15,788 bases of DNA. Origin: a virus (Duplodnaviria; Heunggongvirae; Uroviricota; Caudoviricetes). A program made the position numbers and the translations under genes. Below the pieces are notes generated by a model. It was not told the DNA's origin and searched no databases. It saw nothing but the letters and a program-made list of their open reading frames with translations. The DNA is taken from IMG/VR virus record IMGVR_UViG_2563366800_000002; one strand, written 5' to 3'. This document shows, piece by piece, positions 2,425 through 15,788 of this stretch (position 1 is its first letter; the number at the start of each line of letters is the position of its first letter).

Positions 2425-3108
2425 ATGAAAAATATTAATGCCCTTAACGGGCAGGGATTCGCTCACCCTGTTGCCAGTAAAAGCGATATTAGCGTGCAGC
2501 TTAAACAGCTTCCTGCCGTCGAATTTCACGGGCAACGCGTGGTGACGTTCGCAATGATTGATACCGCGCACCAGCGACCTAAAGACACGGCTAAAAAGAC
2601 TTTTCAGCGTAATCGCACTCGCTTCATTGATGGTGAGGACTTTTTTATTGTCGGCGCGTCAGAGGTCGAATGGGGAGGGGCTGGATATTTAGACAGGGGC
2701 ATTAAACGCCCTGGCAAAAAAATGAACAGTCCGATACGTGGCCGCGTAACACTGATTACGGAATCAGGCTATCTGCTGCTGACCAAACCGTTTAACGATG
2801 ATTTGGCCTGGCAGGTACAGCGCCAGCTCGTGAAAACTTATTTCCGTTGCCCGGAGTTTGTCACTTTCCATCATGTGGATCTGCCGTCGCTCGAAGAACT
2901 GATCGCCATGCCGGTTACTGATGCGCAAAACGCCGTGACTCGTGCGGACAAGCATTCTAAGCAGTTTCATGGCTCACAGGGCAGTAATGGAATGAATCTC
3001 CGCAAGAAGGAACTCAAAGTTCTGCGTCCGGCGGTACGGCTGGTAGATGCGATGGGGCAGATTGATTTCGATAAATATGAGTGGGAGGCGGCACATGATC
3101 GCGCATAA
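2425..3108 (+). CDS. ORF6N-domain protein (antirepressor-like DNA-binding protein)
   Basis: 227-aa ORF. N-terminal segment (FHGQRVVTF..IDTAH...DTAKKTFQRNRTRFIDGEDFFIV ... GRVTLITESGYLLLTKPFNDDLAWQVQRQLVKTYF) fits the ORF6N pattern as recalled from memory. Confidence 0.65.
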   Translation: MKNINALNGQGFAHPVASKSDISVQLKQLPAVEFHGQRVVTFAMIDTAHQRPKDTAKKTFQRNRTRFIDGEDFFIVGASEVEWGGAGYLDRGIKRPGKKMNSPIRGRVTLITESGYLLLTKPFNDDLAWQVQRQLVKTYFRCPEFVTFHHVDLPSLEELIAMPVTDAQNAVTRADKHSKQFHGSQGSNGMNLRKKELKVLRPAVRLVDAMGQIDFDKYEWEAAHDRA

Positions 3109-4076: not shown

Positions 4077-4376
4077 ATGAGAACATATTTATCTGGCTTG
4101 ACTGCCAGCGGTTATGCACACCCCAAAATTATCCCCGGCGCTATTTATTGGGATAAGAACGGCAACAGAGTAACAGTAAAATCGATAATGTTTGACCGTG
4201 TGTATTTTATTCGTGATGGCTATTCATTTCATAGCTCGCTGAACGTGGAGATCTTTATTTGCAGATTCCGGCGGGAAATCCCGCCTTCCAGAAATAACCA
4301 TGTGTCATGTATGGATGTTGATAAAAAACTACAGGAACTGAAAAACATGATTGCCGCGTGGAGAGAGCAGAAATGA
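4077..4376 (+). CDS. Hypothetical small protein, translationally coupled to the primase gene
   Basis: 99-aa ORF. Its TGA (4374-4376) overlaps the primase ATG (4373-4375) as ATGA. Confidence 0.45.
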   Translation: MRTYLSGLTASGYAHPKIIPGAIYWDKNGNRVTVKSIMFDRVYFIRDGYSFHSSLNVEIFICRFRREIPPSRNNHVSCMDVDKKLQELKNMIAAWREQK

Positions 4377-6496
4377 AAAAAGCGCCAAATTTAAAACACC
4401 AGCCACGTGACAAAATGACGGAAGTCATCATTTTTGCGGGTAGTGATGCGTGGGCACATGCGAATCAGTGGCAGGAACAGGACGGGCGACTGGCTGGCGA
4501 TAACGTGCCTCCTGTCTGGCTTGGAGAGCAACAACTTGCCGAACTGGACAACCTGCAAATCGTACCGGACGGACGCTATCGCGTGCGTCTCTATCAGGCG
4601 GGGTTATTGCGTCCGGGGCTTGTTAATACCATCGGGCAGAAACTGGCAGCGGCAGGTGTCAGGGATGCTGATTATTATCCTGAAGGAATGCACAGCCAGA
4701 AACGGGAGAACTGGCGCGAATATCTGGAACGTGAACGGGCAGAGCAGGCGGAAAAGAAAAAGGTAGTTGAACTGCCTGTAAAGAAAAAAGAGCCATGCTA
4801 TCAGGATGATGAATTAAAGCCCCGCGTTGAAAGTCGCGTCGATGGTGTTTTCTGGGTAACGCCCAAAGTGGATAAGCAGTCAGGCGAAATTATCCGGCCT
4901 GAGACGTGGTTATGTTCTCCGCTTGAACTACTGGGAACGGGGACGATCGGTAAAGAGCATTACCGCGTGATGCGCTGGAAAAAATTAGCAAACCATGAAG
5001 TCATCACAATGGCGATCCCGTGTGGTGGCATTGGCGACCGTGACGGCTGGCGGTTGCTTAAAGATCACGGGCTGAATGTGACAACAAACGGCAAATACAG
5101 GGCTATCCTGGCTGACTGGATGCAGTTAAGCGGAAGCCATGAGGAATGGCAGTTAAGCACAACAACGGGCTGGCATTTTGGCGCGTACATCATGCCGGAC
5201 GGTTCAATCATTGGTGATTCTGAAAAACCGATCCTGTTTACCGGAAAAAGTGCCGCTGTTAATGGCTATTCGGTTGCGGGTACGGCGGAGGGCTGGCGCG
5301 ACAGCGTGGCGCGGCTGGCTGGTGGCAATCCGTCCATGATGCTGGGTGTTGCCACGTCACTGGCAGCACCTTTGATTGGCCTTGTTGGTGCTGACGGCTT
5401 CGGGGTACATCTTTTCGAACAGTCATCGGCAGGGAAAACCACCACGCAGAACATCGCTTCAAGTTTATGGGGAGAGCCGGACGCGCAACGGCTGACCTGG
5501 TACGGAACGGCGTTAGGTATCGCCAACGAGGCCGAAGCACACAACGACGGGCTGTTACCCCTGGATGAAATAGGCCAGGCCGGAAACGCGCGGGAAGTGT
5601 CCACGTCAGCCTATACGCTGTTTAACGGTTCGGGGAAATTACAGGGGGCGAAGGACGGCGGCAACAGGGAGATCAAACACTGGCGCACGGTGGCAATCAG
5701 CACCGGAGAAATGGATGTTGAGACATTCCTCAAAAGTGAGGGGGTAAAAGTCAAAGCAGGCCAGCTTGTCCGTCTGCTTAACGTACCGATGGAGAAAGCC
5801 ACGCAATTTCACGAATACAGCACCGGAAAGGCGCACGCAGACGCGTTAAAGGATGCCTGGACTGCAAATCACGGGGCGGCGGGTCGTGAGTGGGTTAAAT
5901 GGCTGGCAGACCACCAGCAGGAGGCAAAGGACACGGTAAGGGAATGCCGCGAACGGTGGCACAACCTGATACCGGAGAGCTACGGCGAGCAGGTCCACCG
6001 CGTGGGGGAACGTTTCGCCATACTGGAGGCTGCGCTTGTGCTTTCCGGTCATGTAACTGGCTGGGCCGCGCAGGAATGCCGGGACGCAATACAGCATAAC
6101 TTTAATGCCTGGGTGAAGGAGTTCGGCACGGGTAACAGGGAATTTAAACAGATGGTTGAACAGGCTGAGGCGTTTTTGTCGTCGTTCGGGTTCAGTCGAT
6201 ACCTTCCTTACCCAAACAGTGATGAGCGTGATTTACCGATTAAAGACCTTGCCGGATACAGAAAGGGGAGTATCAGAAATGAAGATGATGAGTTCCGCTT
6301 TTACACGTTTCCTCATGTGTTTGAGGGTGAGATAGCACAGGGATTTAATCCGTCTCACTTTGCCCGCGCGTTGAGTGCTGCCGGAATGCTGGAAGCGGGT
6401 AACGATCGCCGTTACAAGAAAAAGGCGCTCGGCAAAATTGGGGGGAAGCAGCATGTTTTTTACGTGCTGATGTTCCAGCCTGAAGCAGAAGATTAA
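4373..6496 (+). CDS. Primase/helicase-type replication initiator (P4 alpha-like)
   Basis: About 707 aa from ATG 4373 (the track's 4358 is a GTG five codons upstream). Walker A-like SSAGKTTTQNIASSLWG in the central region; followed directly by an iteron array. Confidence 0.85.
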   Translation: MKKAPNLKHQPRDKMTEVIIFAGSDAWAHANQWQEQDGRLAGDNVPPVWLGEQQLAELDNLQIVPDGRYRVRLYQAGLLRPGLVNTIGQKLAAAGVRDADYYPEGMHSQKRENWREYLERERAEQAEKKKVVELPVKKKEPCYQDDELKPRVESRVDGVFWVTPKVDKQSGEIIRPETWLCSPLELLGTGTIGKEHYRVMRWKKLANHEVITMAIPCGGIGDRDGWRLLKDHGLNVTTNGKYRAILADWMQLSGSHEEWQLSTTTGWHFGAYIMPDGSIIGDSEKPILFTGKSAAVNGYSVAGTAEGWRDSVARLAGGNPSMMLGVATSLAAPLIGLVGADGFGVHLFEQSSAGKTTTQNIASSLWGEPDAQRLTWYGTALGIANEAEAHNDGLLPLDEIGQAGNAREVSTSAYTLFNGSGKLQGAKDGGNREIKHWRTVAISTGEMDVETFLKSEGVKVKAGQLVRLLNVPMEKATQFHEYSTGKAHADALKDAWTANHGAAGREWVKWLADHQQEAKDTVRECRERWHNLIPESYGEQVHRVGERFAILEAALVLSGHVTGWAAQECRDAIQHNFNAWVKEFGTGNREFKQMVEQAEAFLSSFGFSRYLPYPNSDERDLPIKDLAGYRKGSIRNEDDEFRFYTFPHVFEGEIAQGFNPSHFARALSAAGMLEAGNDRRYKKKALGKIGGKQHVFYVLMFQPEAED

Positions 6497-6520: not shown

Positions 6521-6643
6521 GCGGGTTATGCGGGTTATCCTGTGTGTAAGTGCATTAACTGTATGAATAAAAAGGAAATCAATAACCCGCACGTAACCCG
6601 CAAAACGGCAGTTATAACCCGCAAAAGTGCGATTATAACCCGC
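6521..6643. repeat. Iteron-type replication origin: GCGGGTTAT x2 (6521-6538), AT-rich spacer, then the complement ATAACCCGC in four copies (6582-6643)
   Basis: Read directly. Inverted arrangement of a 9-mer around an AT-rich core, immediately downstream of the primase gene. Confidence 0.6.
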
Positions 6644-6707
6644 AGAATTTCACCGTAAGGGTGTAAACAAGCGTAACTATCAACGTTAAAACCGGAGAAC
6701 AGACAGC

Positions 6708-7130
6708 ATGACAGCACAGATAGCAGCTTACGGGCGGCTGGTGGCTGACCCGCAGTTAAAGACCACCAGCAAGGGCACACAAATGGCTATGGCAAGCATG
6801 GCGGTCCCCCTGCCGTGCAATCAGGCAGATGACGGACAGGCGACGATGTGGTTATCCGTCCTGGCGTTTGGCAGACAGGCCGACGCACTGGCAAAACACC
6901 ACAAAGGCGAGCTGGTGAGCGTGGCGGGTAACATGCAGGTAAGCCAGTGGACAGGCCAGAACGGGGAAACGCGGCAGGGCTGGCAGGTTATCGCAGACAG
7001 CGTAATCAGTGCCAGAACGGCGCGACCTGGTGGCAAAAAAGGCCAGCAGGGTCAGGCTACTGACGCTCTAAATAGGGCTAAGCAACAGGCGGGGAATGAT
7101 GATCCATACGGGGATAACATACCCTTTTAG
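6708..7130 (+). CDS. ssb: Single-stranded DNA-binding protein (SSB-like)
   Basis: GGAGA RBS then ATG 6708. 140-aa product with a Gly/Gln-rich linker and an acidic C-terminal tip DDPYGDNIPF resembling the SSB DDDIPF tail. Confidence 0.7.
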   Translation: MTAQIAAYGRLVADPQLKTTSKGTQMAMASMAVPLPCNQADDGQATMWLSVLAFGRQADALAKHHKGELVSVAGNMQVSQWTGQNGETRQGWQVIADSVISARTARPGGKKGQQGQATDALNRAKQQAGNDDPYGDNIPF

Positions 7131-7147
7131 CGATAACAGGGGGATAC

Positions 7148-7396
7148 ATGCCAGTGACATTTGAAGAAGTTCAGCAACATAAAAAGTTTCATGGTATTGA
7201 TGATCTGGAAACCACGACAGCAAAAAAATATCGCCGTCTGCTTTCTTCCGATGCGTTATTTGTTGTGGATCATCATGATTTTCTGCGCAGCTCACTGACC
7301 GGGGAAATTTTCGCAACCAACCGTGAGCAGGTGGAAGCGATGATCGAATATTTGTGGAAAATAAGGCGCAGAATGCGCGATCCCGTGAAACAGTAA
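7148..7396 (+). CDS. Hypothetical small protein
   Basis: 82-aa ORF with a purine-rich RBS; last gene before a terminator. No recognisable motif. Confidence 0.4.
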   Translation: MPVTFEEVQQHKKFHGIDDLETTTAKKYRRLLSSDALFVVDHHDFLRSSLTGEIFATNREQVEAMIEYLWKIRRRMRDPVKQ

Positions 7397-7405
7397 AGCG
7401 ATAAA

Positions 7406-7433
7406 GGCCCGGATTTTTCCCGGGTCTTTTTTT
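7406..7433 (+). terminator. Putative intrinsic terminator (5-bp GC stem CCCGG/CCGGG followed by a run of seven T)
   Basis: Sequence aaaGGCCCGGatttttCCCGGGtcttttttt, directly after the replication-module genes. Confidence 0.5.
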
Positions 7434-7525
7434 CAGGTTTTGTAAATTATTTGTTCGTGGTTGTTTCTGGCTGTTCAGTGATTCTGGCTGATATTTACAT
7501 ACTGATTTTTATGTATATGTTGGCG

Positions 7526-7600
7526 TGTGGCACTCAGACGTGAGCCGCCACAATGCCGCCTGACCCCCTGCGCGATGCCGGGTTGATCTGCGAGATGCCG
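7526..7600. promoter_or_regulatory. Candidate late-promoter control region: inverted repeat TGTGGC-N15-GCCACA (7526-7552) followed by three ATGCCG repeats about 21 bp apart (7553, 7575, 7595)
   Basis: Read directly. Lies 70 to 145 bp upstream of the capsid ATG (7671), with no strong -35/-10 nearby. Confidence 0.35.
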
Positions 7601-7670
7601 AGAGTGTCGGGCGGCGCTCCCTCCGTGTTGGTTTCACGTCCTGAATCTTAACCAATACGAGAAAACCTTC

Positions 7671-8816
7671 ATGAAGAAATTAATCGAACTCCGCCAGCAA
7701 AAAAACGCCCTGAAAAACCAGATGCGATCCCTGCTGGAAAAAGCCGACAGTGAAAACCGCAGCCTGAACGATGACGAGGGCAAACAGTTTGATGAACTGC
7801 GTGCAAAAGCCGATTCCCTCGACACAGAAATTTCCCGTCTTGAAGCTGTTGCGGATGAAGAACGTAACCAGCCTGGTGTTTCCGTCGAAGAGAAAATCAC
7901 CAAAGATGAACTGCGCTCTTACATTCTGACCGGGGAAACCCGCAACCTGTCCGGCAGTGTCCCGGCTGATGGTGGCTATACCGTTATTCCCGAGCTGAAT
8001 AAAGAGATTATGCGCCAGCTTGCCGATGAATCGGTGATGCGCAAAATCTGTACCGTTAAAACCATTCACAGCAATGAATTTAAGCAACCGGTTTCCGCTG
8101 GTGGCGCGGTGGTTGAGCATGGCGAGGAAGGTGCGGCACGTAACCAGACGGCAACGCCGAAACTGAACGAAGTCAGCATCCGCCTGTATCCGATCTACGC
8201 TTACCCGAAAACCACTCAGGAAATTATCGATTTTTCCGAAGTCGATATTATGAGCTGGTTATCTTCTGAAATTGGCGACACTTTCGTTGATACCGAAGAA
8301 ACGGATCTGGTTTCCGGTGACGGCGAGAAAAAAGCTAAAGGTTTCCTGGCGTTCCCGCGCACTGCGGATAACGACAAAACCCGTCCTTTCGGTACGCTCC
8401 AGACGAAAAAAGTTACTGGCAGTCTCAGCGCCGACATGCTGATTGACCTGAAATTTACGCTGCGCAATAAGTACCGCAAAAAAGCTGTATGGGTGATGAA
8501 CTCAAATACAGCCGCCTCCGCACAAAAACTGAAAAATGCCACTGGTGATTACATCTGGCGCGATCGTTTACAGGCTGGTGATCCTGATTCTCTGCTGGGG
8601 CTTCCGGTTGAATATCTGGAATTTATGCCGGACGGTGTGATTGCAGTAGGTGACTTTAAGCGCGGTTATTTCATCGTTGACCATGAAACCGGTACGCGTA
8701 CCCGTCCGGACTTCAGCGAACCCGGATTCATTAACATCTATACCCAGAAATATCTGGGCGGTGGTGTGGTGGATTCGAACGCCATCAAGATTCTGGAAAT
8801 TCAGGCTGGTGAGTAA
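7671..8816 (+). CDS. Major capsid protein, HK97-like fold, with N-terminal coiled-coil scaffold-like domain
   Basis: 381-aa ORF. Charged, heptad-like N-terminus (first 70 aa) then a capsid-like body; followed by a strong terminator and a prohead protease gene. Confidence 0.8.
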   Translation: MKKLIELRQQKNALKNQMRSLLEKADSENRSLNDDEGKQFDELRAKADSLDTEISRLEAVADEERNQPGVSVEEKITKDELRSYILTGETRNLSGSVPADGGYTVIPELNKEIMRQLADESVMRKICTVKTIHSNEFKQPVSAGGAVVEHGEEGAARNQTATPKLNEVSIRLYPIYAYPKTTQEIIDFSEVDIMSWLSSEIGDTFVDTEETDLVSGDGEKKAKGFLAFPRTADNDKTRPFGTLQTKKVTGSLSADMLIDLKFTLRNKYRKKAVWVMNSNTAASAQKLKNATGDYIWRDRLQAGDPDSLLGLPVEYLEFMPDGVIAVGDFKRGYFIVDHETGTRTRPDFSEPGFINIYTQKYLGGGVVDSNAIKILEIQAGE

Positions 8817-8822
8817 TGAGCA

Positions 8823-8845
8823 AGGAGGCTTCGGCCTCCTTTTTT
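8823..8845 (+). terminator. Intrinsic terminator (AGGAGGC - TTCG loop - GCCTCCT, then TTTTT)
   Basis: Perfect 7-bp GC-rich stem with a TTCG loop and a T-run, immediately after the capsid stop; likely partial read-through attenuation. Confidence 0.6.
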
Positions 8846-8864
8846 AGCTTCAGGGGATACACCG

Positions 8865-9425
8865 ATGAAAAACACCGATTTTGAAATCCGCACATCTGAA
8901 CTGACCGCCAGCAATAAAAAGCTGGTGGGGTATGCCGTTCGCTGGAACAGCCTTTCAGAAATTATCTGGGACGAATTCCGCGAACAGTTCACGCCGGGGG
9001 CTTTTGCTGACTATCTGGCGGCGGGTAATGATGTGCGCTGCCTGTATGAGCATGACTATACCCAACTGCTGGGGCGCACCAAATCCGGCACTCTGGTACT
9101 GACTGAGGATAACACCGGGTTACGTTTTGAACTGACACCGCCGGATACCCAGCTTGGAAAAGATGTGCTTACGCTGGTGGAGCGTGGCGACATTACAGGA
9201 ATGAGCTTTGGTTTTCGCGCATTATGCGAGGAGTGGAGTATCGCGCAAAAACCGTATTTGCGTACCGTAACCGCCGCTGAACTCCGTGAAATCACAATAA
9301 CGTCGATGCCTGCTTATCCAGAATCTGGCGTGGAGATTGCCCACCGTTCGTTGTTTGCACAGCACCCTGAATTATGCCCGACAGGAAATAATCGTCATCG
9401 CTGGTCTGAGCTGGCGGGGTTGTGA
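8865..9425 (+). CDS. Prohead maturation protease, HK97 family
   Basis: 186-aa ORF with AGGGGA RBS. N-terminal pattern (ELTASNKKLVGYAVRWNSLS...GAF...LYEHD...LGRTKSGTLVLTEDNTGL...ERGDITGMSFGF) is typical of HK97-family proteases. Confidence 0.8.
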   Translation: MKNTDFEIRTSELTASNKKLVGYAVRWNSLSEIIWDEFREQFTPGAFADYLAAGNDVRCLYEHDYTQLLGRTKSGTLVLTEDNTGLRFELTPPDTQLGKDVLTLVERGDITGMSFGFRALCEEWSIAQKPYLRTVTAAELREITITSMPAYPESGVEIAHRSLFAQHPELCPTGNNRHRWSELAGL

Positions 9426-9426
9426 T

Positions 9427-10641
9427 ATGTGGTGGCCTTTTAGTCGTAAAAAAAGCGAGCAGCGTAACCTGTCCATTGATGATTTTCTGGCGCTGTCCGG
9501 CGTACCGAATACCGGATCCGGAGAATATGTTTCTGCCGGGACGGCTGAATCATTGCCTGCAGTGATGAACGCGGTTTCTGTCATCGCTGAGGCGGTGGCC
9601 ACGATGCCGTGTTATCTGTATCTGGTACGTAATGACAAGGGCAGGGAGGCGCGGGAATGGCTGGACAGTCACCCGGTAGATATTCTGCTGAATGAGCAGC
9701 CTAATTCGTGCCAGACACCTTACCAGTTTAAACGCACAATGATGCGTCACTGCCTGCTGAACGGTAACGCCTATGCGGTTATTGAGTGGGGGCAAGACGG
9801 GCAGCCAAAATCACTTCATCCTTATGCGCCGGGGTGTGTTGTACCGGAACGCACAGGCGCACACAAATACCGCTATACCATCACCGAACCCTATACAGGA
9901 ACGGTGCGCACGTATTTACAGGAAGAAGTTCTGCATCTCCGCTATGCCTCGGATGATGGCTTTCTGGGGCGTTCCCCTGTCACGATTTGCCGTGAGGCGC
10001 TTGGGCTTGGCCTTGCTCAACAGCGCCACGGAGCCAGCATTATGAAAGATGGCATGATGGCGGCAGGGATTATCACGTCAGGCGAATGGCTGGACGGCGT
10101 GAAAGGTAAACAGGCATTAGATGCTCTGGAACGCTACAAGGGGGCGAAAAATGCCGGAAAAACGCCAATCCTTGAAGGGGGCATGGATTACAAGCAACTG
10201 GGAATGAGTAACCAGGATGCGGAATGGCTGGCCTCCCGTCGCTTCTCCATTGAAGACATCGCCCGCATGTTCAACGTATCGCCTATTTTTCTGCAGGAAT
10301 ACAGCAACAGCACCTACAGCAATTTCAGCGAGGCAAGCCGCGCGTTTCTGACCATGACAATGCGCCCATGGCTGGCGAACTTCGAACAGCAAATCAAGGC
10401 CGCTTTGCTGGTGGCTTCTCCCGTACCTGGTACCCGTTATCTGGTTGAGTTTGATTCAGCCGATTTATTACGCGCCACACCCACCGAACGTTATGCCACG
10501 TATGAGAAAGGGATTAAGAACGGGATCATGAATCCGAACGAAGCCCGTGAGCGTGAGGGTATGCCGCCGCGTGAAGGTGGTGATGAGTTCAGCCAGGCAT
10601 GGAAACAGACTGTGGAAATTAAAGGGAGAAAAGATGAGTGA
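9427..10641 (+). CDS. Portal protein, HK97 family
   Basis: ATG at 9427 directly after the protease stop (the track's 9337 start would overlap the protease by 90 nt). About 404 aa, placed next to protease and capsid. Confidence 0.8.
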   Translation: MWWPFSRKKSEQRNLSIDDFLALSGVPNTGSGEYVSAGTAESLPAVMNAVSVIAEAVATMPCYLYLVRNDKGREAREWLDSHPVDILLNEQPNSCQTPYQFKRTMMRHCLLNGNAYAVIEWGQDGQPKSLHPYAPGCVVPERTGAHKYRYTITEPYTGTVRTYLQEEVLHLRYASDDGFLGRSPVTICREALGLGLAQQRHGASIMKDGMMAAGIITSGEWLDGVKGKQALDALERYKGAKNAGKTPILEGGMDYKQLGMSNQDAEWLASRRFSIEDIARMFNVSPIFLQEYSNSTYSNFSEASRAFLTMTMRPWLANFEQQIKAALLVASPVPGTRYLVEFDSADLLRATPTERYATYEKGIKNGIMNPNEAREREGMPPREGGDEFSQAWKQTVEIKGRKDE

Positions 10642-10936
10642 AGCCAGAATTACACCTGATGAAGTCAGGGCACATCTTCGACTTGATGATGATTTATCCG
10701 GTGAAGGCGAACTTCTGAAAATGTATACCGATGCGGCGCTGGAAGCCTGCCAGAAGCATATCGGGAAACGTTTTGAAGACGGGCTGGAATTTACCCCGGC
10801 AATGCGTGTTGGTTGCCTGATGTACATCGCTTTCCTGTACGAGAACCGGGAAGCGGTTTCACCAGTGGAGCACTCGGAACTGCCTATGGCTATTTCTGCG
10901 CTCTGGTCAGTTTATCGTGACGTAGGGGTGTACTGA
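10634..10936 (+). CDS. Head-tail connector/adaptor protein (gp6-like)
   Basis: AGGGAG RBS; ATG 10634 overlaps the portal stop. About 100 aa starting MSEARITPDEVRAHLRLDDD, matching the gp6-like connector N-terminal pattern. Confidence 0.65.
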   Translation: MSEARITPDEVRAHLRLDDDLSGEGELLKMYTDAALEACQKHIGKRFEDGLEFTPAMRVGCLMYIAFLYENREAVSPVEHSELPMAISALWSVYRDVGVY

Positions 10937-11376
10937 TGCCGTGGCAACCATTAAGGCGATGCACTGAGCCTGGCTGTAATAAGCGCGTGAAGTCCGGCAA
11001 GTGTGAAGAGCACAGGCGGGCTGCATGGCGTGCAGAGGATGCCAGACGGGGACACCGCCGCGCGCGCGGGTATTCCCGACAGTGGGACAAATACCGCGCC
11101 CTGTACCTGAGCAAAAACCCGTTATGCGTGCGTTGTCTGGCTAAGGGGATTTATACGCCAGCTCTTGTGGTGGATCACATCATTCCCATCAATGGCGGCG
11201 GTGATGTTCTCTTCTGGCCTGAGTGGAATCACCAGGCATTGTGCCAGACGTGCCACAACCGTAAGACGACACGGGAAGATCCAGCCACGAAAGCAAACCG
11301 TAAAGCGGGCATGTATCGCGAGCAGGAAGAACGGGCGGCACACCGTAACGACTGGATGTATGGCGATGATGACTGA
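10936..11376 (+). CDS. HNH endonuclease (packaging-associated)
   Basis: 146-aa ORF with Cys-rich N-terminus and the HNH core VVDHIIPINGGGDVLFWPEWNHQALCQTCHNRKT. Sits just upstream of the terminase genes as in HK97-like cos packaging modules. Confidence 0.85.
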   Translation: MPWQPLRRCTEPGCNKRVKSGKCEEHRRAAWRAEDARRGHRRARGYSRQWDKYRALYLSKNPLCVRCLAKGIYTPALVVDHIIPINGGGDVLFWPEWNHQALCQTCHNRKTTREDPATKANRKAGMYREQEERAAHRNDWMYGDDD

Positions 11377-11545
11377 ACAGGAGCAAACCAGGCTGATACG
11401 TGGACTGATAAGGCAGCGTGACACATGGAAGACACAGGAGACAGAGCACAAAGCCAACAGGACAGGGCGCACAAAACGCACCACAGCGAAGCGATTAACC
11501 GACCGTGACCGCGAGGTCATGGAATGTTTTCGCAATCGCTGGTGA
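11366..11545 (+). CDS. Possible small basic protein (59 aa) overlapping the HNH stop; uncertain
   Basis: Tandem ATG at 11366 and 11369, ORF to TGA at 11545; Arg/Lys/Thr-rich product. No clear RBS; could be a non-coding part of the packaging site. Confidence 0.2.
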   Translation: MMTEQEQTRLIRGLIRQRDTWKTQETEHKANRTGRTKRTTAKRLTDRDREVMECFRNRW

Positions 11546-11553
11546 GGCCGTCA

Positions 11554-11613
11554 GAGGGGGTGGGGGTGGTTTTCAGGACGAAACCGTCCCTGCCGGACAC
11601 CGACCGCCCCCTC
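11554..11613. other. G-rich nested dyad symmetry between HNH and TerS; candidate cos / terminase recognition region
   Basis: GAGGGGGTGG (11554-11563) pairs with CCGCCCCCTC (11604-11613); inner CAGGACG ... CGTCCCTG; followed by T-rich AAATTTTTGTG. The position matches where cos lies in HK97-like genomes. Confidence 0.3.
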
Positions 11614-11663
11614 AAATTTTTGTGCACGGTAATTTTTTTGAAAATAATTGGGCGAAAAAAAAC

Positions 11664-12020
11664 ATGGCAAGACCACCAAAAGCCCCCGCTTACCTGGATG
11701 AAATCGCGGTCAGGCAGTGGAAGGAAAAATCGCGCCAGCTTTCCGGGCGGGAAGACCTTACCCCCGCCGACTGGAGCAATCTGGAACTGTATTGTGTTAA
11801 CTACTCCATATACCGCAAAGCCGTCGAAGACCTTGCGACGCGCGGGTTCAGCATTGTTAACAGTCAGGGCAGCGAGAGCAGAAACCCCGCCCTGAGCGCA
11901 AAGGCTGACGCAGAAAGAATAATGATCAAAATGGCTTCTTTGCTGGGTTTTGACCCGGTAAGCCGCCGCAGAAATCCACCGGAAACAGAGGAAGAGGACG
12001 AGCTTGACCGCCTGGCATGA
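11664..12020 (+). CDS. terS: Terminase small subunit, P27 family
   Basis: Product from ATG 11664 starts MARPPKAPAYLDE and ends ...LLGFDPVSRRRNPPE, fitting the P27-family TerS pattern. The track's longer ORF from 11505 runs through the dyad region and was not used. Confidence 0.75.
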   Translation: MARPPKAPAYLDEIAVRQWKEKSRQLSGREDLTPADWSNLELYCVNYSIYRKAVEDLATRGFSIVNSQGSESRNPALSAKADAERIMIKMASLLGFDPVSRRRNPPETEEEDELDRLA

Positions 12021-13665
12021 GTACGCAGAAGGCGTAAAAAACGGCAAAATTACGGCCTGTAAACGACTGAAACAGGCCGTTAAACGGTATTTTTCTGACC
12101 TTGAAAACCCCCTTTACACGTTCGATCCGGAGGTCGTGGAGCGGTTTATTGCCTTTTCCAGGGTGTGTCCGCACGTAAAAGGCGCAATGCGCGGTAGCCC
12201 CATTGAGCTGGAGCCGTGGCAGCAGTTCGCCTTTGCGTGCATCCTGGGCTTTAAGGTTAAGGCCACCGGACGGCGCAAATACACCAGCGCATTCATTGAA
12301 GTACCTCGAAAAAATGCCAAATCCACGGTCGCCGCTATCCTGGCTAACTGGTTTCTGGTTATGGAAAACGGGCAGCAGGATATTTACACCGCCGCCGTGA
12401 GTCGTGATCAGGCGCGGATCGTGTTTGATGATGCGCGTCAGATGTGCCTTTTATCCCGACCGTTACGAAAGCGGGTAAATATTCAGGCACACAAGGTGAT
12501 ACACCCGAAAACCAACAGTCTGTTAAAGCCACTGGCAGCAAAAGCAGCAACCATTGAAGGTACAAACCCGAGTCTTGCCATTGTGGATGAATATCACCTG
12601 CACCCTGACAACGGGGTTTATTCCGCGCTTGAACTGGGAATGGGGGCACGCCCGGAGGGGCTGTTATTTGCCATCACCACATCGGGGAGCAACGTTGTTT
12701 CAGCCTGTAAACAACACTACGACTATTGCTGCCAGATACTGGATGGTGAAGAGGTGAACGAATCCATGTTCGTTCTGATTTATGAGCTGGATGATGAAAG
12801 CGAGGTTGACGATCCGGCGATGTGGATAAAGGCGAATCCCAATATCGATGTTTCCGTAGATCGTGAAAAACTGGCCTCAACCATCCAGAAAGCGCGGGGT
12901 ATTCCGTCGCAGTGGGTGGAAATGCTCACCAAGCGATTCAATATCTGGTGTCAGGGGGCTACGCCGTGGATGGGTAACGGTGCATGGGCTGAGTGCGCCG
13001 GAACGTTCACGGAGGAAGATTTACACGGTCAGGAGTGTTACGCGGGGCTTGATTTATCATCCACAAGCGACATCTCCAGCGTGTGCTATGCCTTTCCGGT
13101 TGGTAAAACCATTATGCTGGTTTCTCGTCACTATCTGCCGGAATTTCAGCTACAGAACCCCGCCAATAAAAACCGCGCCATCTATCGCCAGTGGGCAAAG
13201 GCGGGCTGGATACGCACAACACCGGGTGACTGCATTGATTATGACCGTATCCGTGATGACATCATGGCGGATGCAGAGAATTTCAATATCAGGCTGGTGG
13301 GCTTTGATACGTGGAACGCCACGCACCTGAGAACGCAGTTACAGGGGGCAGGCTTTGAGGTGGAGCCGTTCCCTCAAACCTACCTTCGTTTCAGTCCGGC
13401 GGCGAAATCGTTCGAGGTTTTTGTTAACCGGAAGGTGATTGTGCATCGTGGTGATCCGGTGCTGGCCTGGTCAATGAGTAATGTTGTGATGCAGAGTGAC
13501 GCGAACGCCAATATCAAGCCGAACAAGAAAAAATCATCCAACAAGATAGACCCGAGCGTTGCGGCGCTGATGGCGTTTGGCACATTCCAGGCTGAGCATG
13601 AGGAATTTGCATTTGATATGAGCGACAGCCAGAAAGAGCGACTAGCGGCATTTGATGGGGTATGA
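12004..13665 (+). CDS. terL: Terminase large subunit
   Basis: 553-aa ORF. N-terminus (W.EYAEGV.NGKI.A ... IELEPWQQF) and ATPase region are typical of TerL. The only in-frame start near the N-terminus is TTG at 12004, overlapping terS by 17 nt. Confidence 0.8.
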   Translation: MTAWHEYAEGVKNGKITACKRLKQAVKRYFSDLENPLYTFDPEVVERFIAFSRVCPHVKGAMRGSPIELEPWQQFAFACILGFKVKATGRRKYTSAFIEVPRKNAKSTVAAILANWFLVMENGQQDIYTAAVSRDQARIVFDDARQMCLLSRPLRKRVNIQAHKVIHPKTNSLLKPLAAKAATIEGTNPSLAIVDEYHLHPDNGVYSALELGMGARPEGLLFAITTSGSNVVSACKQHYDYCCQILDGEEVNESMFVLIYELDDESEVDDPAMWIKANPNIDVSVDREKLASTIQKARGIPSQWVEMLTKRFNIWCQGATPWMGNGAWAECAGTFTEEDLHGQECYAGLDLSSTSDISSVCYAFPVGKTIMLVSRHYLPEFQLQNPANKNRAIYRQWAKAGWIRTTPGDCIDYDRIRDDIMADAENFNIRLVGFDTWNATHLRTQLQGAGFEVEPFPQTYLRFSPAAKSFEVFVNRKVIVHRGDPVLAWSMSNVVMQSDANANIKPNKKKSSNKIDPSVAALMAFGTFQAEHEEFAFDMSDSQKERLAAFDGV

Positions 13666-13955
13666 CGAGAATGACTGAAACCGATCTACTAAAAATAATT
13701 CGCTGCGTTACCGGAGTCTGCCAGGCAACAGGCAAACCGGAGGCCAAGCAGCCGGATACCGTCACCGCTGAAAATTACGCGCGTGTGGTGGCTAAGGTGA
13801 TGCGCCGTGACGGTATTGAGCTTAACGGCGTGGATATGCGCAACATACGAACCAGAGTCCTTGAGTTGCTGGCATACCGTCGCCGTTCTCAACAACGGAG
13901 GGAGAGCGCGAAAAATACTTACCAGTGGAAGAAGCCGGAACGGTTGCGGCGGTAG
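13662..13955 (+). CDS. Hypothetical protein, last gene of the packaging operon
   Basis: 97-aa ORF; ATG 13662 overlaps the terL TGA (ATGA). Basic C-terminus (RRRSQQRRESAK). No recognisable motif. Confidence 0.4.
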   Translation: MTRMTETDLLKIIRCVTGVCQATGKPEAKQPDTVTAENYARVVAKVMRRDGIELNGVDMRNIRTRVLELLAYRRRSQQRRESAKNTYQWKKPERLRR

Positions 13956-14294
13956 ATTCCTGATATTCAGGAAAACCACGAATCTGTGGGTTTTACTGGC
14001 GCGGTTACGGCGGTGACACGCACCGAGGCAGAACAATTACCGTAGGTTAAAGCGACAGTATTCACACCAAAGGCAGAAATTAGCGGTTAACGTAACTGAC
14101 TGATATTTTCAGGAACAGCCAACGGCTGAGGCCGGAGCTATAAGAATAGCTTTGGGTACAGTCCTCAGTTTTGAGGGATGTTAACCAACTGAATAATAAG
14201 CAAACCTCAAAATTGAGTTTTGTATCTGCCTGAGTTATTTCTGTGCTAACTTGTTGATATTCCCGACGGCCCAAAAATGGGTTGGCTGGTGGGT

Positions 14295-14412
14295 GAGTTG
14301 CAGATTTGCAACTCGACCATGAAACTACGGAAACTACCCGTAGTTTGGGTAGTAAGAGCAACACCCAGATTTTGGGGCTTACTCGCGATCCCCAAATAAA
14401 GGGGATCGGTGG
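14295..14412. repeat. 118-bp structured repeat, copy A
   Basis: Six mismatches to copy B over 118 aligned positions, no indels. Starts with the near-palindrome GAGTTGCAGATTTGCAACTC and contains further inverted repeats (AAACTACGG / CCGTAGTTT; CCCC / GGGG). Confidence 0.75.
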
Positions 14413-14442
14413 CATCACTGGCCCCACTTTCCTGATGTGTTT

Positions 14443-14594
14443 GCGGGTTATTTGGGAGAGGTTGCGGGTTATTTTGAATGACTTGCGGGTTACGATTTGG
14501 CTAACATTTGAACATGTCATTTTTCAACGCATTGATATTAAATAATAAAAAATACTTAGCACGCGAAGATAACCCGCTAACCCGCATAACCCGC
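14443..14594. repeat. Second iteron cluster: GCGGGTTAT / GCGGGTTAC x3 (14443-14493), AT-rich spacer, complement ATAACCCGC-type x3 (14569-14594)
   Basis: Same 9-mer and the same inverted layout as the origin at 6521-6643, about 7.9 kb away. Confidence 0.55.
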
Positions 14595-14728
14595 ACTGTT
14601 TTGTATATATATACGAAAAATTGCATTCAGGAGGGGTAGCAAAATCCCTACCGTCTCTTATCTCTTGGAGTGCCCGCCTCTTCGAATTTTAACCCCCGTG
14701 AAATTACAAAATTTCCCTGACTGATGGC

Positions 14729-14846
14729 GAGTTGCAGATCTGCAACTCGACTATGAAACTACGGAAACTACCCGTAGTTTGGGTAGTAAGAGTAACACCC
14801 AGATTTTGGGGCTTACTTGCGATACCCAAATACAGGGGATCGGTGG
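14729..14846. repeat. 118-bp structured repeat, copy B
   Basis: Direct repeat of 14295-14412, offset 434 bp. Here the first 20 bp form a perfect palindrome GAGTTGCAGATCTGCAACTC. Confidence 0.75.
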
Positions 14847-15251
14847 AAGAAATATCGTTTCTCATATGTGAGTACCGAGGGCGGAATTCCGCCTTCGGTT
14901 ACTTATTGTGCTCATGCACAGGGAGGGGCGGGTCAAATCTCTGTACCCTGACGTCTTCCGGACTGCCCGCTCCATCGATTTTTTATACCCGCGAAAAATG
15001 CTTCACGCTGGTGGGCATGATGCGTGGGGATGCTGATAATGGGTTATTGTGGGATAGATGTCTCATACAATAAGAGATTCATAATTTGCTTTTTAATACT
15101 GTTATACTCGCCGCCTTTCTACCGTGCTCATGCTTTCGCATATTTTCGGCTTTGTGCAATAATCCGTATATCACTCGGTGTATCACTTTTAGCTAAAATG
15201 CATGGCGTGTTTGTTAATTTAACTGATTAAAATCAGTGGGATATAAAGTTT

Positions 15252-15788
15252 ATGAAACATATTGTAGAAGTAATGATCCCCGAAGCGGAGATTAAAGCGC
15301 GTATCGCCGAACTGGGTCGTCAGATTACTGAGCGTTACAAAGACAGCGGCAGCGATATGGTGCTGGTGGGTCTGCTGCGTGGCTCATTTATGTTTATGGC
15401 GGACCTGTGCCGTGAAGTTCAGGTATCTCATGAAGTCGACTTTATGACCGCCTCCAGCTACGGTAGCGGCATGTCCACCACCCGTGATGTGAAAATCCTC
15501 AAAGATCTGGATGAAGATATCCGTGGCAAGGACGTGCTGATTGTTGAAGATATCATCGACTCGGGGAATACACTGTCGAAAGTGCGTGAGATCTTAAGCC
15601 TGCGCGAACCGAAGTCGTTGGCGATTTGTACGCTGCTGGATAAACCGTCCCGTCGTGAAGTGAACGTCCCGGTTGAATTTATCGGTTTCTCGATCCCGGA
15701 TGAGTTTGTGGTGGGTTACGGCATTGATTACGCACAGCGTTACCGTCATCTGCCGTATATCGGCAAAGTGATTCTGCTGGACGAGTAA
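15252..15788 (+). CDS. hpt: Hypoxanthine phosphoribosyltransferase (host chromosomal gene)
   Basis: 178-aa product with the PRTase motif [13 protein letters not shown] and full-length resemblance to enterobacterial Hpt as recalled; host-like codon usage; TAA at the window end. Confidence 0.9.

Follow-up and report, generated by a model that had tools for sequence, protein, structure and literature searches.

The stretch of DNA analysed here (15,788 nucleotides, referred to throughout as the window; IMG/VR virus record IMGVR_UViG_2563366800_000002, Caudoviricetes) is a capsid-forming phage-inducible chromosomal island (cf-PICI) of Escherichia coli, located between gcd and hpt, and it contains two clusters of one and the same iteron, the second about 7.8-7.9 kb downstream of the first. 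Comparison with related islands shows that these clusters are almost certainly two units of one type of replication origin, A and B, which have become separated in this lineage. We further consider it probable that the unit in the right arm (arm B) is bound by the island's own primase-helicase, PriRep, and takes part in replication, because arm B occurs where an adjacent unit B is missing, because distal units recur with the cognate iteron in other iteron classes, because the iterons of arm B bear a signature of selection, and because the C-terminus of PriRep covaries with the iteron.

The iteron GCGGGTTAT is found nine times in the window, against 0.18 expected (none of 200 shuffled sequences reached nine), and GCGGGTTA 12 times against 0.47 expected. 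All copies fall within 6521-6643 (cluster 1, unit A) or 14443-14594 (cluster 2, unit B), which bears out the initial annotation of this DNA, where two distant clusters sharing an iteron had been noticed, the first of them just past the primase gene. Unit A indeed begins 25 bp past the stop codon of PriRep, the usual position of a PICI origin, after pri-rep and before ssb. Its plus-strand copies start at 6521 and 6530 and its complement copies at 6583, 6594, 6615 and 6636 (11, 21 and 21 bp apart), on the two sides of a spacer of 67% A+T. Opposed iterons around an A+T-rich stretch, right after the rep gene, are the design of the origins of PICIs and of the Staphylococcus aureus pathogenicity islands (SaPIs). 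Unit B has the same design, but not that position, as it lies about 570 bp from attR. Its plus copies start at 14443, 14464 and 14485 (21 bp apart) and its complement copies at 14570, 14578 and 14587 (abutting), and its spacer is 71% A+T, with a core of 84%. The same inverted layout had been attributed to the two clusters. Both do have opposed iterons around an A+T-rich spacer, but they are mirror images of one another, with the order tight, A+T-rich, spaced in A and spaced, A+T-rich, tight in B. Unit A can be aligned end to end with the reverse complement of unit B (score 80; mean of 300 shuffles 23, maximum 35), and on this alignment the units are best described as inverted paralogues. Neither cluster, nor the 121-bp repeat that flanks cluster 2, is a known RNA family, since Rfam gave no match for the whole window at the gathering threshold or for the right arm at E <= 1.

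The relation between the two units becomes clear from the cf-PICI EcCIEDL933 (L005; the prefix L is used for the loci compared). There, the 370-bp gap after pri-rep holds a homologue of unit A and, directly after it, a homologue of unit B in which spaced iterons, A+T-rich stretch, the three abutting iterons and the (TA)n tract are found again; no iteron cluster is found in the right arm. The identity of unit A with the first half of the origin of EcCIEDL933 (L005:12797-12944) is 93%, and that of unit B with the second half 78%. Several islands (L018, L048, L061, L073 and others) encode a PriRep 98-99% identical to that of the window, yet have A and B adjacent; the adjacent unit B of the L073 type shares 85% identity with arm B over 162 bp, and its tail, TGTTTTG(TA)nCGAAAAATTG, is identical. 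Since A and B stand side by side both in EcCIEDL933 and in islands with a near-identical PriRep, the window carries a split version of a two-unit origin. Adjacent A and B behind a DUF927 primase gene are the common state across Enterobacterales (9 of 20 loci, with varied iterons), and the arrangement of EcCIEDL933 recurs in many independent genomes, which makes an assembly error unlikely. The loci L008 and L014 are remnants in which the loss of unit B from behind unit A can be seen.

The presence of arm B is complementary to that of the adjacent unit. Arm B is carried by 17 of the 17 islands with unit A only in which the right arm is covered (the window, L001, L006, L023, L028, L032, L034, L035, L052, L060, L069 and L103-L108, the last six being further genomes taken from the hit list), always 7.4-10.5 kb downstream and in the same relative orientation, and by none of the six complete islands with adjacent A and B (L005, L040, L099-L102). 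The association is significant (Fisher's exact test, p about 1e-5), a value that is overstated as the islands are related. The loci L008, L014 and L024, with unit A only and no arm B seen, were left out of this count because their contigs end at the equivalent of L003:12354, before the B site, as were L085 and L087 of Serratia (unit A only, no B in the available flank), in which the end of the island is not reached. The same pairing of an A-only origin with arm B is seen in further genomes from the coordinates of the BLAST tables.

Distal units are also found outside the GCGGGTTAT islands. In Escherichia albertii L078, the iteron of which is GGGACAAG, unit A follows pri-rep (12162-12296) and unit B (14454-14570) lies 2.2 kb downstream at the end of the island, with GGGACA-type iterons and the same (TA)n tail. 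Three Serratia genomes with the iteron GAACCAAC, L089, L095 and L088, have a unit B with this cognate iteron as well, at distances from A of 4.7, 2.2 and 6.2 kb. The distal unit thus carries the cognate iteron in three independent iteron classes, and the relative orientation of A and B is retained in all split islands. The idea that cluster 2 might be bound by a factor other than the primase, which had come from its presence in non-cognate islands, was dropped in view of these cognate distal units and of the half-origin of EcCIEDL933.

Two further observations concern the source and the copying of such units. A helper phage or a plasmid as the source of cluster 2 was rejected by BLAST: among the phage records, apart from chance matches, only a fragment record of 2.2 kb was matched, over 78 bp, and the plasmid records gave no match. 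In Yersinia pekkanenii (L086) the GAACCAAC origin region is present three times, at 7143-7410, 11725-11992 and 12906-13203, in and around the primase gene, and the tblastn match to the gene is stretched to 2.9 kb, which suggests a tandem duplication of the 3' end of the primase gene together with the origin.

The predicted initiator, PriRep, contains the Pfam domain DUF927 (E = 7.9e-48). Over residues 218-602 it aligns with 8tch, a SaPI 'pathogenicity island protein' (E = 6.7e-15), and it also matches the helicase 5dgk of the PDB (E = 1e-3); the match to the NCBIfam Cch1 helicase (E = 1.2e-10) is well under the cut-off of that model, and RefSeq calls the L001 counterpart a DUF927 protein. The Pfam and PDB matches are those of DUF927 self-loading helicases, and by homology PriRep can be placed in the family of the SaPI Rep and staphylococcal cassette chromosome mec (SCCmec) Cch helicases. 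In SaPI Reps, iterons on the two sides of an A+T-rich centre are recognised by a winged-helix domain at the C-terminus, and the protein loads itself, without a loader (PMC9371898). Across 23 proteins from several genera, the terminal motif of PriRep tracks the iteron class and the helicase core does not: RYKKKAL.K.GGKQHVFYV goes with G(C/T)GGGTTA iterons, G(Y/F)QRKSPRI.GRQINVYV with GAACCAAC, and WQIRTPRLKH with GGGACAA and TGGGATAA. The PriRep of strain 042 is instructive here. It matches that of L003 at 80-100% per 40-residue block across about 600 residues; its last ~70 residues are about 100% identical to those of the window (90% in the preceding block), and its iterons are the GCGGGTTAT of the window, unlike the GGGACAAC of L003. 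We infer that the last ~110 residues of PriRep set the iteron class. The AlphaFold2 model of the C-terminal 148 residues (mean predicted local distance difference test score, pLDDT, 52) was too poor for fold comparison.

The pattern of variation within arm B also argues for a function. Among 29 distinct copies, the mean pairwise diversity is 0.012 in the iteron columns versus 0.152 in the spacers, and variable columns number 5 of 53 in the iterons versus 49 of 99 in the spacers (Fisher's exact test, p = 3.6e-7; none of 5000 block permutations was as good), which indicates purifying selection on the arm-B iterons. One might imagine instead that arm B is a non-functional relic, an old half-origin that recombined into the right arm and is kept there by its closeness (about 30 bp) to a selected neighbour, the element X described below. 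Copies of arm B in islands with other replicons would then be easily understood, as would the constant junction of B with the first copy of X (X1), the resemblance of X to the sequence upstream of terS, and the recombinant appearance of the arm of the window. We regard such a relic as unlikely, since linkage to X cannot explain why, inside one stretch of 152 bp, diversity is about 12 times lower in the iterons than in the spacers; moreover, cognate iterons are found on the distal unit in two further, unrelated iteron classes, and among the islands examined every A-only island has arm B, while none with adjacent A and B does.

Several points weigh against a part for arm B in replication. The complementarity count is confounded by shared ancestry, as the B-X1 junction is common to all the E. 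coli copies of arm B and suggests that arm B arose once in this species. B and X1 are indeed a constant pair in the B-carrying E. coli right arms, so tightly linked that the element possibly selected, for some other reason, is X. Each unit alone has the full SaPI-type design, and unit A might suffice by itself. Finally, the GCGGGTTAT arm unit is also present in E. coli islands whose own origins have other iterons, so that arm B can persist without a cognate initiator. These orphans (Table 1) are found in islands that each have a complete multi-unit origin of their own, and they differ from the nearest cognate copy at 4-19 of 250 positions. The simplest reading of these sequences would be a recent exchange of the pri-rep-ori module that left the arm unit behind. 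As such, the orphans neither support nor refute a function in the window, and the presence of arm B alone is no proof of its use.

The orphans also invite a more adventurous reading, namely that B and X form a portable cassette: a co-resident island's GCGGGTTAT-type PriRep would copy in trans any island that has the cassette, or would be decoyed by it, the arm B of the window merely coinciding with its cognate replicon. Intact orphans are present in at least five E. coli islands with other replicons, with one analogous case in Serratia, and a B-like sequence is present in about 375 of 5426 E. coli genomes versus 260 for an A-like sequence. Such origin piracy seems to us highly improbable, as the few differences between orphan and cognate copies are compatible with recent module exchange without selection and the strict pairing of arm B with A-only origins would be left unexplained. 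In a wider version, which we would call a long shot, pairs of inverted half-origins would work kilobases apart, and the distal unit together with a cos-like element would constitute a portable cassette for replication and packaging, kept for being copied by, or for decoying, the PriRep of a co-resident.

The explanation that we prefer as a whole, and think probable, is a split two-unit PriRep origin of which both units are used. The origin consists of the two paralogous units A and B in inverted orientation, each of SaPI type, with opposed iterons around an A+T-rich stretch. This lineage has lost the B that stood next to A, and B is situated in the right arm. After excision, hexamers of the island's own PriRep would attach through their C-terminal domain to the GCGGGTTAT iterons in A and B, melt the A+T-rich stretches, for which the (TA)n tract beside B is a candidate, and then load themselves as the replicative helicase. 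Replication would start from, or be aided by, two sites on opposite sides of a circle of ~15.5 kb. With the SaPI-type design complete in each unit and the (TA)n tract present at B, we slightly favour arm B as a real site of melting and loading.

The sequence that follows unit B deserves attention in this respect. Its tail is nearly invariant among the arm copies (diversity 0.013), and it also comes after the adjacent unit B in other iteron classes (L003, L078). The (TA)n tract itself (14603-14612 in the window) varies from 5 to 8 repeats among otherwise near-identical arm copies, a length variation which looks like that of a microsatellite, within a candidate unwinding element. A promoter scan found no sigma-70 consensus in or beside either cluster, the tail of unit B included, and there is no support for the (TA)n tract acting as a promoter.

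In iteron plasmids such as P1 (incA) and R6K, copy number is controlled by iteron clusters that lie apart from the origin, and arm B could likewise be a control site, where PriRep is titrated, where handcuffing with A limits copy number, or where a promoter is regulated at the (TA)n tract. The near invariance of the tail would suit this, as would the adjacent origins, where unit B ends just upstream of the start codon of the next gene. Control of this kind is nevertheless rather improbable in our opinion: besides the missing sigma-70 consensus, arm B has no gene after it in the window; the replication of PICIs comes as a burst upon induction, so that the use of negative copy control is not obvious; and B has both the A+T-rich stretch and the (TA)n tract expected of a melting site.

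Table 1. Coordinates of the origin units, of PriRep and of the elements of the right arm in the window, and of orphan arm units in other islands.
Feature	Location	Strand	Description
PriRep, fused primase and self-loading replicative helicase with initiator	4373-6496	+	707 aa; alternative GTG start at 4358
Putative iteron-recognition domain, last ~108 residues of PriRep	6170-6493	+	proposed from covariation with iteron class
Origin unit A (cluster 1)	6521-6643		2 abutting iterons, 43-bp spacer, 4 inverted iterons; after PriRep gene, before ssb
121-bp repeat R, copy 1	14292-14412		four consecutive hairpins, no iterons
Origin unit B (cluster 2)	14443-14594		3 iterons, 75-bp spacer, 3 abutting inverted iterons; right arm
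Conserved tail of unit B	14595-14625		ACTGTTTTG(TA)5CGAAAAATTGCA; candidate DNA-unwinding element
Element X1	14626-14725		always after arm unit B in E. coli; possibly cos-like
121-bp repeat R, copy 2	14726-14846		94% identical to copy 1
Element X2	14911-15020		diverged second copy of X
attR core GTATATCACTCGGTGTATCACT	15166-15187		22 bp, with its direct repeat to the left of int in L001; 65 bp upstream of hpt
Orphan arm B	L003:13031-13183		own iteron GGGACAAC
Orphan arm B	L004:13031-13183		own iteron GGTAGA-type
Orphan arm B	L047:475-605		own iteron GGTAGA-type
Orphan arm B	L049:375-528		own iteron P4-type TGTTCACC
Orphan arm B	L054		own iteron P4-type TGTTCACC
Orphan GAACCAAC distal unit, Serratia oryzae	L082:18237-18384		behind TGGGATAA origin

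In the right arm, cluster 2 had been described as lying between two repeats of 118 bp. The flanking direct repeats (R) are real, their length being 121 bp, and neither contains a copy of GCGGGTTA. R is predicted to fold (z-scores of -6.6 on the plus strand and -9.1 on the minus strand), and its last hairpin shows a compensatory change between islands (GATCCCC..GGGGATC versus GATACCC..GGGTATC). It also occurs as a single copy in the right arms of unrelated PICIs without unit B (L002:16393-16513; L040). The arm of the window seems to be a recombinant join of an R-B-X arm with an R-Y-X arm, marked by the R repeats. The sequence upstream of the island's own terS (11548-11640) aligns with both X1 and X2, the shared part being ...GGAC.GCCCGCC.C.TCAAATTTTT..., and in HK97-type phages cos lies just upstream of terS. 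For this reason X is possibly cos-like, and it may be a packaging site present in three diverged copies; the cosN of lambda (GGGCGGCGACCT) is absent even when 2 mismatches are allowed. In E. coli CFS3292 an ISApl1 (IS30-like) sits in the right arm of an island like that of the window (NZ_CP026935.2:4125361-4127833), where it splits the parts matching 13900-15300 of the window.

The window is almost wholly one mobile element. It starts at the start codon of a tyrosine integrase gene (1-1224), after which come accessory genes for a DUF6387, an ORF6N and then a DUF4222 protein, ahead of the PriRep gene. The ssb gene (6708-7130) and a head and packaging set of HK97 type (7671-13665) follow, the latter comprising capsid, S78 protease, portal, connector, HNH protein, P27-family small terminase (TerS) and large terminase (TerL), and there are no tail genes among the annotated genes of the window. 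Capsid-forming PICIs, typified by EcCIEDL933, have been reported (bioRxiv 10.1101/2022.09.08.507074). The window is identified as one of them because its gene set and order match theirs: it has its own capsid, protease, portal, connector, HNH, TerS and TerL genes together with an integrase and a replicon, without tail genes, and the gene order is that of EcCIEDL933. E. coli B1172 carries a near-identical element (L001) between gcd and hpt, and both iteron clusters and both 121-bp repeats lie inside the island, short of attR. The attachment site is not a tRNA, as a scan of the window found no tRNA gene.

Some observations bear on the cargo and on the surroundings of these islands. A low-GC stretch at 1200-2100 (32-40% versus about 50% elsewhere) spans the DUF6387 gene beside int and is followed by the ORF6N-domain gene at 2425-3108; both genes are probably accessory cargo. 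PADLOC matched no defence model to the accessory genes near int or to the 97-aa protein of the right arm. L001 is longer than the window by about 260 bp in the region on the int side, including an annotated helix-turn-helix regulator gene. In L103-L107 and L006 (E. coli TUM1881, ETEC4085, VTB97432v, AH19B041, 361 and 042) a related cf-PICI lies inside the large terminase gene of an HK97-like prophage. RefSeq annotates in these a terL fragment without C-terminus to the left of the island's int and a TerL fragment without N-terminus to the right of arm B, so that the satellite interrupts the packaging gene of the resident prophage.

The origin of a PICI is usually taken to be a single block of iterons behind rep, and we found no description of a two-unit, split, bipartite or second PICI origin in the literature searched. 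In enterobacterial PICIs with a DUF927 PriRep the origin is rather a pair of inverted units, the second of which has repeatedly moved to the far end of the island with its cognate iteron kept. The natural adjacent, split and orphan forms provide a variant series for asking what a second initiator-binding site does, whether as a second start, a looping enhancer or a means of copy control; to our knowledge, the role of the second site has been an open question for the crr of P4 since the 1980s. There is also a practical side, as mini-replicons and deletion mutants of cf-PICIs may behave unexpectedly if only the site beside pri-rep is counted as the origin. From the orphan copies comes the idea that co-resident satellites might replicate one another; if the portable-cassette reading were true, it would amount to origin piracy between satellites with unrelated replicons.

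The initial annotation had likened the two clusters to the ori and crr of satellite P4. That P4 has two separated iteron sites is confirmed by its record, where crr (4291-4590) directly follows the alpha gene at its 3' end and 4.8 kb separate it from the ori iterons (9310-9413); by position, cluster 1 corresponds to crr and cluster 2 to ori. Both elements are satellites with a primase-helicase initiator of their own and two separated sites that share one iteron. The core of the comparison can be retained, in that the clusters are, from the half-origin homology, the cognate iterons and the complementarity, presumably paired cis sites of one replicon; its P4-type character cannot. PriRep has no significant similarity to alpha (best BLASTP E = 0.11 over 51 residues), the type I iteron of P4 is TGTTCACC and not GCGGGTTAT, the crr of P4 is made of two direct 120-bp repeats that bear iterons whereas the 121-bp repeats of the window are iteron-free, and the units of the window are inverted paralogues. 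PICIs with TGTTCACC-type iterons do exist (L002, L049), each with a single cluster. The requirement for both P4 sites in cis is given by the annotation of the record ('cis required region'). These comparisons indicate that the origin of the window resembles P4 ori and crr in layout only and belongs to the PriRep-ori family of PICIs and SaPIs.

A strict P4-type mechanism, with A and B both indispensable in cis, looped together by one protein and serving a single start site, would be in keeping with the shared plan, with the complementarity of arm B and the adjacent unit (17 of 17 versus 0 of 6), which fits a cis requirement for B, and with the constant relative orientation in all split islands. 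We consider it possible but doubtful, given the differences in initiator, iteron and repeats just listed, and given that each unit is by design a complete SaPI-type origin, for which independent firing is equally possible.

The closest relative among described systems is EcCIEDL933, the prototype cf-PICI of E. coli O157:H7, which shares with the window the iteron GCGGGTTAT, a PriRep with identities of 88% for the C-terminal domain and 96% for the core, and the packaging module, with a TerL 94% identical. It differs in having A and B adjacent and an iteron-free right arm, B being about 7.8 kb off in the window, and in a small gene between origin and ssb that is missing from the window, where A is directly followed by ssb. 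E. coli PICI origins have been described as an A+T-rich region bordered by two iteron sets, and a rep-ori segment drives autonomous replication in EcCICFT073 (PMC6092414). The Rep-ori of SaPIs has a homologous helicase core (8tch), an origin right after rep and opposed iterons around an A+T-rich centre, and specificity is set by the C-terminal domain in SaPI Reps (PMC9371898); unlike the inverted paralogous pair of the window, whose second member lies kilobases away, the SaPI origin is described as a single unit.

Action at a distance within one small replicon has a parallel in the gamma, alpha and beta origins of R6K, where one initiator binds both an iteron cluster and the distant sites with which the cluster acts. 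R6K differs in its initiator, pi, which is unrelated to PriRep, and in having one iteron cluster with single distant sites and not two complete units. If the split origin proposed here for the window is correct, its layout would be like that of P4 ori and crr or of R6K, and would have arisen independently of both.

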